From positions 1-60,209 of the forward strand of contig JAEUQX010000082.1 of the NCBI GenBank assembly GCA_016788625.1: a stretch of DNA of 60,209 nt, given 5' to 3'. A program made the translations under genes and the position numbers. Below, in pieces: positions 25,079-32,301 of this stretch. Source of the DNA: Anaerolineae bacterium. Its GTDB lineage: Bacteria; Chloroflexota; Anaerolineae; Aggregatilineales; Phototrophicaceae. The stretch's first letter is position 1. Every line of letters starts with the position of its first letter. The notes beneath the pieces were generated by a model. The model was not told the origin of the DNA and searched no databases. It saw nothing but the letters and a program-made list of their open reading frames with translations.

Positions 25079-27487
25079 TTGACACCATCACCTTCACCTG
25101 ATCTTCCTGAGAAAGAGATCCGCGAGCGCTGCGCCGCCTACCTGACCGCCGCCGCCGAGGAAGCCCGCCAGCGCGAGCAGAACTACATCGGCGTCGAGCA
25201 TCTGTTCATGGCAGCCACGCGCACCGAGAGCGGCCCGACCTGCAACCTGCTGCGTCGTGCCGGGCTGGACCCGCGCGTCGTGCGCAGCGAGATTCGCAAA
25301 GAGATCGGCAGCGGCGACGGCAAGTTGGGCGAGGTGCTGCCCCTGACGCCGCGCAGCGAGATCGTGCTGGCGCTGGCGATATTCCTGGCCGACCGCGACG
25401 AAGACTATAAAGACCGCGAGATTGACGAAGCGCACCTGCTGCTCGCGATGCTCCAGGAAGGCGAGAACATCCCGGTTCGCAAACTGATCGAGATGGGCTT
25501 TGATCTCAACCTGTGGCTGCAGCGGCTGCTGCTGGAAGCGCAGCTCCCGCGCACAGAACACAAGGGAGACGAGGACGAAAGCGAAATCTTCGACTTCCCG
25601 CACATCAGTGACGACGACTTCGCCTTCGACGACTCGGAAGAATTCCCATCCATGCCCGTCCGAGGCGAAACACGGATGCCCACCCCACTGCTGGACAAGT
25701 ATGGCCGCGACCTGACCGAACAGGCGCGCGCGGGCAAGATCGGCCCGGCCATCGCGCGCGAGAAGGAAATCCGCGCCCTGGCCCGCACGCTGGCGCGCAG
25801 CAAGAAGAATAACCCGCTGCTGCTCGGCGACGCGGGCGTGGGCAAGACGGCGGTGGTCGAAGGGCTGGCCTACGCGATTCACGCGGGCAGCGCGCCGAAG
25901 TCGCTGGAGAACCGTCGCCTGGTACAGATCGAGATCGGCACGCTGGTCGCGGGCACGAGCCTGCGCGGGCAGTTCGAGGAACGGCTGATCGGCATCGTGG
26001 ACGAGGCTAAGAATGCCGGCAACGTCATCCTGTTCATTGATGAGATTCACACCATCGTCGGCGCTGGCGATACGATTGACAGCAACCTGGACGCCGCCAA
26101 CATCCTCAAGCCTGCCCTGGCGCGCGGCGAACTGATCTGCATCGGCGCGACCACGCACGAGGAATACCGCCGCGCCATCGCCCAGGACCCGGCGCTCGAC
26201 CGCCGCTTCCGCACCATCGACATCGAAGAACCCAGTGAGGTCGCCTCGCTCGAAATCCTCAAGGGACAGCGCGAACGGCTGGAGAAACATCACGGCGTGA
26301 CGATCACGCAAGAGGCACTGGAGATGGCCGTCAACCTCTCGGTGCGCTTCCTGCCCGACCGCCGCCTGCCGGATAAGGCGCTCGATCTGCTGGATGAGGC
26401 CTGCACACGCGTGATCATCCGCACGCTCTCGCCGGACGAGAGCAGCGCCGACATGACGCCGGAAGTCGAGGTCGAGAACATCGCGGCGGTGCTTTCCGAC
26501 TGGACAGGCATCCCCGTAACCGAACTGACGAAAGACGAGAAGCGCCGTCTGGCCGGGCTGGAGAACGCCCTGCGCCAGCGCGTGATCGGACAGGACGAAG
26601 CCGTGACGACGGTGGCCGAAGCCATCAAGACCGCCCGCGCCGGATTGGGCGATCCGCTGCGTCCGATTGGCGTGTTCCTGTTCCTGGGGCCGTCGGGCGT
26701 CGGCAAGACTGAACTGGGACGCGCGCTGGCGGAGTTCCTCTTCGGCAGCGACGACGCCATGCTGCGGCTGGATATGTCCGAGTTCCACGACTCGCACACG
26801 GTCGCCCGGCTGATCGGCGCGCCGCCCGGCTACAAGGACACACAGCGCGGCGGACAGCTCACCGATGGCCTGCGCCGCCGCCCGTACAGCGTGGTGCTGC
26901 TCGATGAGGTCGAGAAGGCCGCGCCGGAAGTCTTCGACATCTTCCTGCAGGTCTTCGATGAAGGACGGCTGAGCGACGCGCACGGACGCAATGTTGACGC
27001 GCGGCACTCGGTCTTCATCATGACCAGCAACATCGGCACGGAAGAGGCGGGCAAACACTTGGGATTCCTGGGCGGCGCTGACTCGAAGCCGGATTTCACG
27101 GCCTATCTGAGCCGTTTCTTCCGCCCGGAATTCCTCAACCGTATCGACGAAATCATCACCTTCCACTCGCTCGACCAGGATAAGATGAGCCGTATCCTCG
27201 ATTTGCAGCTCAAGGACCTACATGAGCGGCTGCGCCAACAGAAGCTGACGCTCGAACTGGCCGACGCTGCCCGCGAGCTGATCCTGAAGAAGGGCTACGA
27301 CCCGGTCAACGGCGCTCGCCCGCTGCGCCGCGCCATCGAGCGGCTGCTCACCCGCCCGCTCAGCACGCGCATCGTGGAAGATGACTTTCAGAAAGGCGAC
27401 ACGATCCTGGCGCTGGCCGACGATAGTGAACGCCTGCACTTCGAGGTCAAAGCCAAGCCGAATGATGTGACGAGTAACGAGGGATGA
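25079..27487 (+). CDS. ClpA/ClpC-like Hsp100 AAA+ ATPase (divergent)
   Basis: Clp N-repeats ([19 protein letters not shown]); D1 [30 protein letters not shown]2 [18 protein letters not shown] loop; GARPLRR; no middle coiled coil; TTG start. Confidence 0.93.
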
Positions 27488-27537
27488 GGGAAACGAAGCA
27501 TTCACCAGACCCAGAACGACATTGTAGGGGATGAATT

Positions 27538-27561
27538 GTAGGGATACGCCATCACGTGTCC
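27538..27561. repeat. REP-like element (degenerate)
   Basis: gtagggatacg-ccatca-cgtgtcc between the Clp and kinase genes. Confidence 0.45.
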
Positions 27562-27691
27562 GCCGCAGAGGAAAAGCAGAGGTAGTGTATATTGTGCAGG
27601 CAGGGGCTTGTAAGGGTGCAATGCCTTGCGCCCTTACGTCAGCCTGTATATCCTCCCGGTCAGGATCACCAGGCAGCAGGTCACAATCACG

Positions 27692-31735: not shown

Positions 31736-31760
31736 TCGCTAACTCACCTTATGTAGAAAG

Positions 31761-31857
31761 CCCTTACCCTAAATCCCTCTCCTCATCGAGAGGAACTTTA
31801 AGAAGACCTGTTATGTCCTCCCATCGACTTGAGGGATAAGGGGCCGGGGGATGAGGG
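31761..31857. repeat. Family-2 palindromic repeat pair
   Basis: cccttaccctaaatccctctcc...gagagg and tcctccc...gaggg...ggggccgggggatgaggg in inverted arrangement between the kinase and FHA genes. Confidence 0.55.
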
Positions 31858-31896
31858 CATCTGCGTAAGGCGAGTCCATGAAGAAGGATTAGCACA

Positions 31897-32301
31897 GTGG
31901 CAAAAGATATTTCCATCACCTTCATGAGCGGCCCTTACGACGGACGCACGCTGGTGTTTCAGCAGCCGGAGATTGGCGAAGAAAAGGTGCTGCTGATCGG
32001 TAGGCGTGAAGGCTGTGACATCCATCTGCATTTCGACAGCCAGTCCTCGCGCATCCACGCGCGCCTGGGCTTGCAGTCGATGCCCGTGACGGCCTCCGAG
32101 TCGGTCGATAACCCCTTCGCGCTGAACTTCTGGCTGGAAGACGGCAACAGCCGCAACGGGACGTTTGTCGAACGCGACAAGTCACCGATCAAGGGGCGCG
32201 TCAGCCTGCGACCAGGGACGCTGTTCCGCGTGGGACGCACCTGGCTGCGGCTGGACGTGCCACTGAGCTACGACGAGAGCAGCGACGAACCGGAGTTATG
32301 A
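31897..32301 (+). CDS. Stand-alone FHA domain protein
   Basis: LIGRREGCDI (GR), SRIHA (SxxH), LEDGNSRNGTFV (NGT), LRPGTLFRVG; GTG start after GAAGGA. Confidence 0.9.
   Translation: MAKDISITFMSGPYDGRTLVFQQPEIGEEKVLLIGRREGCDIHLHFDSQSSRIHARLGLQSMPVTASESVDNPFALNFWLEDGNSRNGTFVERDKSPIKGRVSLRPGTLFRVGRTWLRLDVPLSYDESSDEPEL

Follow-up and report, generated by a model that had tools for sequence, protein, structure and literature searches.

A conserved Clp ATPase, TPR kinase and FHA gene module of Aggregatilineales, apparently a variant of phosphorylation-controlled Clp proteolysis

Control of Clp proteolysis by threonine phosphorylation is already known from RseA and ReoM, and coupling of an FHA protein to the Clp-family ATPase ClpV is known from type VI secretion (T6SS). 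In mycobacteria, phosphothreonine (pThr) 39 of RseA triggers degradation by ClpC1P1P2; the available text of a review describes this route with the housekeeping ClpC1, names neither an FHA adaptor nor a dedicated Clp, and calls open both whether RseA pThr is read directly and how Clp proteases read threonine phosphorylation (PMC5515868). In Listeria and relatives, the Ser/Thr kinase PrkA steers ClpCP proteolysis of MurA through the small protein ReoM (PMC7286690, accessible sections). In T6SS loci, a kinase (PpkA), an FHA protein (Fha), PppA and a dedicated Clp-family ATPase (ClpV) act together in a threonine phosphorylation pathway (PMC5995506, in part). The vWA-MoxR ternary conflict systems, source of the TCAD9 domain, share with the loci described below an APH-like kinase domain, occurrence in Chloroflexi and coupling by repeated domains (PMC7159879 and PMC8195603, portions available).

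Here we describe a three-gene module, comprising a Clp ATPase, a kinase with 22 tetratricopeptide repeats (TPRs) and an FHA protein, that would work most like the McsB-phosphoarginine-ClpCP pathway of Bacillus and Staphylococcus, with which it shares a kinase mark, a ClpC-derived N-domain and ClpP (PMC12583610, in part), yet does not pass as ClpC by its M-domain or by both phosphoarginine (pArg) pockets. The module differs from that pathway in having a Hanks kinase, a separate reader, no M-domain and a lost pArg1 pocket; ctsR, mcsA and mcsB do not adjoin it, and a McsB-type gene (PF00217) was not found in six genomes, the source genome and five relatives, of 87-98% completeness. Unlike the module, the ReoM route, as far as the text consulted goes, has a non-FHA kinase substrate, a housekeeping ClpC and a membrane PASTA kinase (PMC7286690). 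The T6SS pathway differs too, since the module has a ClpP loop and a soluble TPR kinase, its locus lacks a phosphatase and no sheath gene was found; and vWA, MoxR and variable effectors are all missing from the conserved neighbours of 51 module loci. A dedicated FHA protein for a dedicated ClpP-type motor is thus in none of the RseA, ReoM and T6SS systems compared. The initial annotation knew of no system of this composition, and the literature covered, which stops short of subscription journals and bioRxiv supplements, yielded no description either; the portions seen of PMC7159879, PMC8195603, PMC13689560 and 10.64898/2026.10.19.760177 do not describe the module, the Clp and FHA statements of the first two concern other systems, and the supplements of PMC7159879 gave no match. 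We conclude that the module is real and conserved, and apparently a so far undescribed variant of phosphorylation-controlled Clp proteolysis.

The window, the whole 60,209-nt stretch analysed, carries the module as consecutive plus-strand ORFs with repeats in both gaps, as initially annotated (Table 1); these dispersed repeats have 11 and 6 other matches in the genome, and three control gaps have 0. That layout stood, with some corrections: the kinase ORF is open from 27626, where TTG sits inside a repeat, so that ATG 27692 (1347 aa) is the likelier start, and the helical domain and Thr-rich linker of the kinase and the hydrolase gene at 32961 had been missed. The reported lack of adjoining ctsR, mcsA, mcsB, clpS, clpP and T6SS genes was borne out, none being found by sequence or Pfam among the ORFs at 18000-40000 (10 ORFs scanned). 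The hydrolase, whose gene follows the FHA gene at no more than 1.8 kb in 35 of 71 loci, is a possible accessory of the module; the vapBC-like pair is absent among the conserved neighbours of related loci. Promoter and terminator scans stayed at chance level, and the RNA runs gave short scattered contigs only, which bear on neither expression nor co-transcription. An RRM RNA-binding protein gene just 5' of the module (24276-24566) is covered more than the module by short RNA-library contigs.

Table 1. Features of the module and its surroundings, in window coordinates
Feature	Position	Strand	Basis or remark
Dedicated double-ring Clp/Hsp100 ATPase, 802 aa	25079..27487	+	Pfam, NCBIfam, alignment, tree; variant N-domain, acidic linker, two AAA+ modules, without M-domain, LGF ClpP-docking loop L661-G662-F663
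ClpN domain, FHA-linked subfamily	25103..25549	+	E40, T90, P91, R92 invariant
Dispersed intergenic repeat, about 50 nt	27608..27658	.	Up to 8 overlapping matches elsewhere in genome
Soluble Hanks-type Ser/Thr kinase: helical N-domain, Thr-rich linker, 22 TPRs	27692..31735	+	ORF open from 27626
Kinase N-terminal domain, conserved, all-helical, loosely TPR-like	27716..28195	+	Without Pfam match
Variable kinase linker with conserved T-x-x-D/E site, T224 of long ORF	28196..28504	+	Candidate FHA docking
Kinase domain	28505..29380	+	Catalytic motifs kept in 45/45 aligned orthologues
22 TPRs, three-repeat periodicity	29426..31669	+	
Dispersed intergenic repeat, about 45 nt	31759..31803	.	6 matches elsewhere in genome
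Stand-alone FHA protein, 134 aa, distinct subfamily (MSG-x-x-DG, GxTW motifs)	31897..32301	+	pThr-binding residues invariant
Small gene and PIN-domain gene, vapBC-like	32311..32951	+	Pfam; local insertion, outside module
Alpha/beta hydrolase (Hydrolase_4)	32961..33794	+	Pfam; frequent downstream neighbour

The Clp protein is of Hsp100/Clp class I, with a Clp_N domain and two AAA+ modules (Pfam) whose Walker A/B, arginine finger and sensor motifs are intact; the catalytic motifs of the motor are kept across 44 aligned orthologues. Its scores reach the cut-off of no NCBIfam Clp equivalog, TssH/ClpV included: 688 against 993 for ClpA, 776 against 1232 for ClpB and 688 against 885 for TssH, and ClpK and ClpG membership likewise stays under the NCBIfam cut-offs. 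Three other Clp ATPases are encoded in the genome, and in the phylogeny that the initial annotation had proposed, the module Clps form their own branch (support 100), beside a separate ClpC and following host families, which marks a dedicated paralogue. Two identities are rejected: that of the sole housekeeping ClpC, by these other Clps and the separate branch, and that of a T6SS remnant, by the TssH score and by the sheath gene VipB, which was not found in the genome. Between the AAA+ modules the coiled-coil M-domain is absent; the gap at its position spans 42-47 aa in module Clps and 95 aa in the ClpC-like paralogues of the same genome. That genome also encodes a Clp paralogue whose first AAA+ module is degenerate and which has neither M-domain nor ClpP loop (L075:2231-4474, G000:C355), and two paralogous proteins of 430-440 aa, without Pfam match, directly before a ClpC-like gene (L074:274-2906, G000:C312).

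The initial annotation had the Clp ATPase remodelling or degrading its target. Through a [LIVM]GF loop, present in all 13 members tested and with GF at least 90% conserved in the 44 Clps, the module Clp could plausibly dock on ClpP; ClpP genes are found in the source genome. These observations also bear on the proposal that the Clp works without ClpP, as a remodeller dismantling the kinase-TPR scaffold in the way ClpV recycles the T6SS sheath. Such a role would suit the unusual first pore loop, and T6SS ClpV1 foci need Fha1 (PMC5995506, accessible part); set against the conserved docking tripeptide and a genome with ClpP genes and no sheath gene found, we regard it as very improbable. The first pore loop has the same 11-residue reading in 44 of 44 Clps, with Leu where the two ClpC-like paralogues have Tyr or Phe, and this replacement of the usual aromatic residue could weaken the grip on substrates.

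ClpC N-domains are the closest solved relatives of the module N-domain. Compared with Bacillus subtilis ClpC, the residues on the E32 side are invariant (E32 kept in 56 of 56), whereas the positions matching T7 and E106 are not kept and the latter is variable; one of the two pArg pockets (E106/T7) is thus lost and the E32-side pocket retained. In ClpC, activation by pArg depends most on the E106 pocket, and the pArg pockets are also bound by MecA (PMC12583610, sections seen); the ClpC-type pocket of mycobacterial ClpC2 binds pArg but not pThr (PMC13345244, in part). Searches of the source genome, which is 93.6% complete, did not find a McsB-type kinase, ClpS or MecA. The lost E106/T7 pocket, a ClpC-type pocket that does not bind pThr and the missing McsB, ClpS and MecA together point to the need for an adaptor.

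The kinase (Pkinase and TPR by Pfam; ORF 27626-31735) is of the Hanks Ser/Thr type, with Gly loop (GGMGIV), VAIK, HRDLKPAN, DFG and the APE-like SPE, and is followed by exactly 22 TPRs of 34 aa each, so that the intact motifs and repeat number initially annotated were confirmed by alignment. Repeats are 40% identical at the three-repeat phase and 27% out of phase. The array had been thought a ligand sensor; it is strongly conserved rather than diversifying, TPR blocks being mostly 62-72% identical within most of the genus, and it therefore seems better suited to binding one constant partner in the host than to sensing invaders. The N-terminal helical domain was predicted with pLDDT 88.6; fold searches matched it to nothing specific, the best Z being 10.0 to Ctr9-type TPR arrays (rmsd 5.8 over 141 residues), and an ESM Atlas search gave nothing. 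This domain also occurs fused to TPRs without a kinase in two genomes (G253 and G341) of another family of the phylum, in one locus with a few TPRs (L077:8625-9698).

Within the kinase linker, a T224-x-x-D/E site is present in 38 of 45 orthologues, and T-x-x-D/E motifs are enriched in the linkers overall (173 observed, 98 expected). FHA domains prefer pT-x-x-D, and the conserved site is a candidate FHA docking site. The FHA protein itself carries the GR, SxxH and NGT residues initially annotated, as G35-R36, S51-x-x-H54 and N87-G88-T89 (Pfam FHA), with G35, R36, S51, H54, N87 and T89 invariant in 56 of 56 aligned rows. Residues invariant outside the pThr site, M10, S11, D15, G16 and W116, may form a ClpN-binding face.

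The three genes are a conserved, vertically inherited module of the Aggregatilineales (Anaerolineae). Among 50 kinase-bearing relatives, the Clp gene lies directly upstream of the kinase in 44, the FHA gene directly downstream in 28, and both are adjacent in 23; the linkage in other genomes on which the initial annotation made its reading depend is thus borne out. Eleven more have FHA upstream of the kinase within about 8.5 kb (seven nearer, four farther), two are split by contig ends, up to nine have FHA unlinked from the kinase, and the six without a kinase-adjacent Clp carry Clp elsewhere. The clp-kinase-FHA order also occurs in 33 of 38 more distant loci with a full upstream flank, drawn from the best 80 of 350 FHA-anchored loci, and relatives often have fewer than 20 nt between the genes, as in an operon. 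In four unrelated genomes two small genes are inserted between the Clp and kinase genes (L037:6282-6982).

Profile searches of 251 Aggregatilineales genomes of at least 90% completeness found the ClpN subfamily in 165 and the FHA subfamily in those same 165, with the kinase (N-domain profile) in 158 of them; the ClpN and FHA profiles span all three layouts described below, not the three-gene module alone. Three genera of the window's family (0/72) and one other family (0/14) lack all three. These shared absences represent few independent losses, and the match in co-occurrence is therefore suggestive rather than a statistic. Phylum-wide, the FHA subfamily appeared in 2 of 401 genomes, both in the window's family, and FHA relatives come mostly from Aggregatilineales, Phototrophicaceae and Anaerolineae. 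Copy numbers run together in part: 28 of 30 genomes with a single ClpN copy have a single FHA copy, and 19 of 47 with a single FHA have two ClpN proteins.

The same source genome has a second locus, conserved across the order, in which a related FHA gene stands 4 nt before a gene for a 728-aa fusion of ClpN to TCAD9 (L072:1494-4184, G000:C660). FHA precedes ClpN-TCAD9 by 0-10 nt in 24 of 31 such loci; the other seven have no adjacent FHA, and two of these lie near contig ends. In a third layout, family f5, which does not have the three-gene module, encodes a kinase-ClpN protein followed by FHA in 4 of 4 genomes, and one genome (G038) has a single 560-aa kinase-ClpN-FHA fusion protein (L104:4216-5898), which as a single case could reflect a lost stop codon. 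The FHAs of the three layouts group on a single branch (99/96), apart from 31 further FHA domains of the source genome, in a tree whose bootstrap was not fully settled and from which 2 weak matches of 35 were omitted; their ClpNs likewise group on one branch (SH-aLRT 87), apart from 21 further ClpN domains. That the same ClpN and FHA subfamilies stand together in several layouts points to a working ClpN-FHA pair and lends independent support to the FHA-as-adaptor idea of the initial annotation, as far as gene arrangement can. The idea that the three genes are only old neighbours, each with its own job, can point to a gene order that is disrupted in some members of the genus and in several further genomes; it seems to us scarcely credible, since the genes are lost together, are duplicated together and occur in three layouts and one fusion.

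Other approaches to the pair were less informative. Mutual information between ClpN and FHA columns gave no signal above control pairs, at an effective depth of only 40-60. The ClpN-FHA part of the G038 fusion, predicted from a faulty alignment, had both domains folded (pLDDT 81.9) and no docking indicated (pTM 0.56). In a profile search of 1.84 billion proteins the top matches were multi-repeat ClpN proteins, none with FHA, and a single-protein scan of genome contigs gave no match. Outlying Clps and a pseudokinase-ClpN-AAA protein match the ClpN profile at lower scores, so the theme may reach beyond Aggregatilineales. The architectures seen include a 730-aa pseudokinase-ClpN-AAA protein (P0306) and a 2276-aa kinase-CHAT-ClpN-repeat-AAA+ protein (P0087).

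TCAD9 brings in a different explanation, a conflict or programmed-death system of filamentous bacteria in which ClpN would couple the motor to effector kinases such as TCAD9 through homotypic contacts. This domain is the 'ternary complex associated domain' of Pfam, and its APH-like HGD-x4-N motif is intact in 30 of 31 ClpN-TCAD9 proteins; coupling by repeated domains is known as the 'EAD principle', and a fusion of a death-like domain with a Clp-like ATPase has been reported (PMC8195603, text available). One extra ClpN-TCAD9 copy has a ParA/MinD-like N-terminal domain (L107:121-3090, G007), and membrane-anchored STAND-like genes lie near the module in 19 of 51 loci. The module is nonetheless single copy and all-or-none by clade, with a tree that follows host families and high identity within most of the genus (FHA 72-83%, Clp 75-84%, TPR blocks as above); the neighbours showed no variable effector slot, and the queries used against phage and plasmid collections gave no match. 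PADLOC matched all components of no known anti-phage system in the module, giving generic kinase, TPR and AAA matches only and none for FHA. Vertical, clade-wide and highly conserved inheritance argues for core signalling over the anti-phage role initially considered, and we judge a conflict system quite improbable.

We give about an even chance to a writer-reader-unfoldase circuit with the FHA protein as pThr adaptor of a dedicated, ClpP-linked unfoldase, and infer its binding steps, its direction of control and its substrates from conservation and gene arrangement. The TPR kinase would phosphorylate its own threonines and those of partners bound to it; the FHA protein would attach both to these phospho-threonines and to the N-domain of the Clp ATPase of its module, and this ATPase would unfold the captured protein and hand it to ClpP. 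The first substrates would most probably be the kinases themselves, which would make the circuit a switch that resets a signalling pathway of the host, possibly one tied to the cell envelope via a neighbouring membrane kinase. Such a kinase gene stands head to head with the Clp gene in 28 of 40 loci, and in many relatives this Ser/Thr kinase (PT[VI]TDS motif in 22 of 32) and a STAND-like gene are found beside Clp (L021:926-4223); in the source genome the two are on other contigs. The sensor-writer-reader-unfoldase interpretation initially offered is thus partly supported.

Against the adaptor reading count the Leu of the first pore loop, the E32-side pArg pocket that is kept, the FHA and Clp genes that are unlinked in some relatives, the genomes with one FHA and two ClpN proteins, and the ClpN-TCAD9 genes with no FHA next to them; nor does a simple adaptor by itself explain ClpN on the motor-less kinases of the second and third layouts. 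The latter suit another arrangement, in which the kinase phosphorylates Clp or the ClpN-bearing kinases and FHA binding turns activity on or off. Fusion to kinases places ClpN-bearing proteins near kinase activity, a TPSPD stretch recurs in the tails of ClpN-TCAD9, ClpCP is controlled indirectly through Thr phosphorylation of ReoM (PMC7286690, portion seen), and a motor without an M-domain may need another brake, as we infer from the available sections of PMC12583610. The acidic Clp linker is, however, nearly Thr-free (0-2 Thr in five members shown), while the kinase linker has the conserved T-x-x-D/E site, and we consider this switch unlikely. The adaptor reading can also be widened to an Aggregatilineales phospho-threonine degron pathway, in which FHA would be the dedicated adaptor of a remodelled ClpN, later reused as a docking module on at least two other kinase types; kinases would write, FHA read and Clp-ClpP destroy. 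We put this forward tentatively, as less likely than not.

In bacteria, a pathway of this kind would correspond to the ubiquitin ligases that read phosphodegrons, and it would be a first core signalling pathway for a widespread, barely studied order, for one genus of which a cultured strain exists (PMC8941918, in part). A 134-aa FHA protein and a 150-aa N-domain offer a small candidate answer to how Clp proteases read pThr; if it holds, they would be a new Clp adaptor class and a handle for targeted degradation in bacteria. Elsewhere in the window, a lower-GC stretch encodes a 692-aa TIR-domain protein (44963-47041), and at 49907-58084 lies the gene for a 2725-aa histidine kinase that contains PAS domains and about nine GAF domains.
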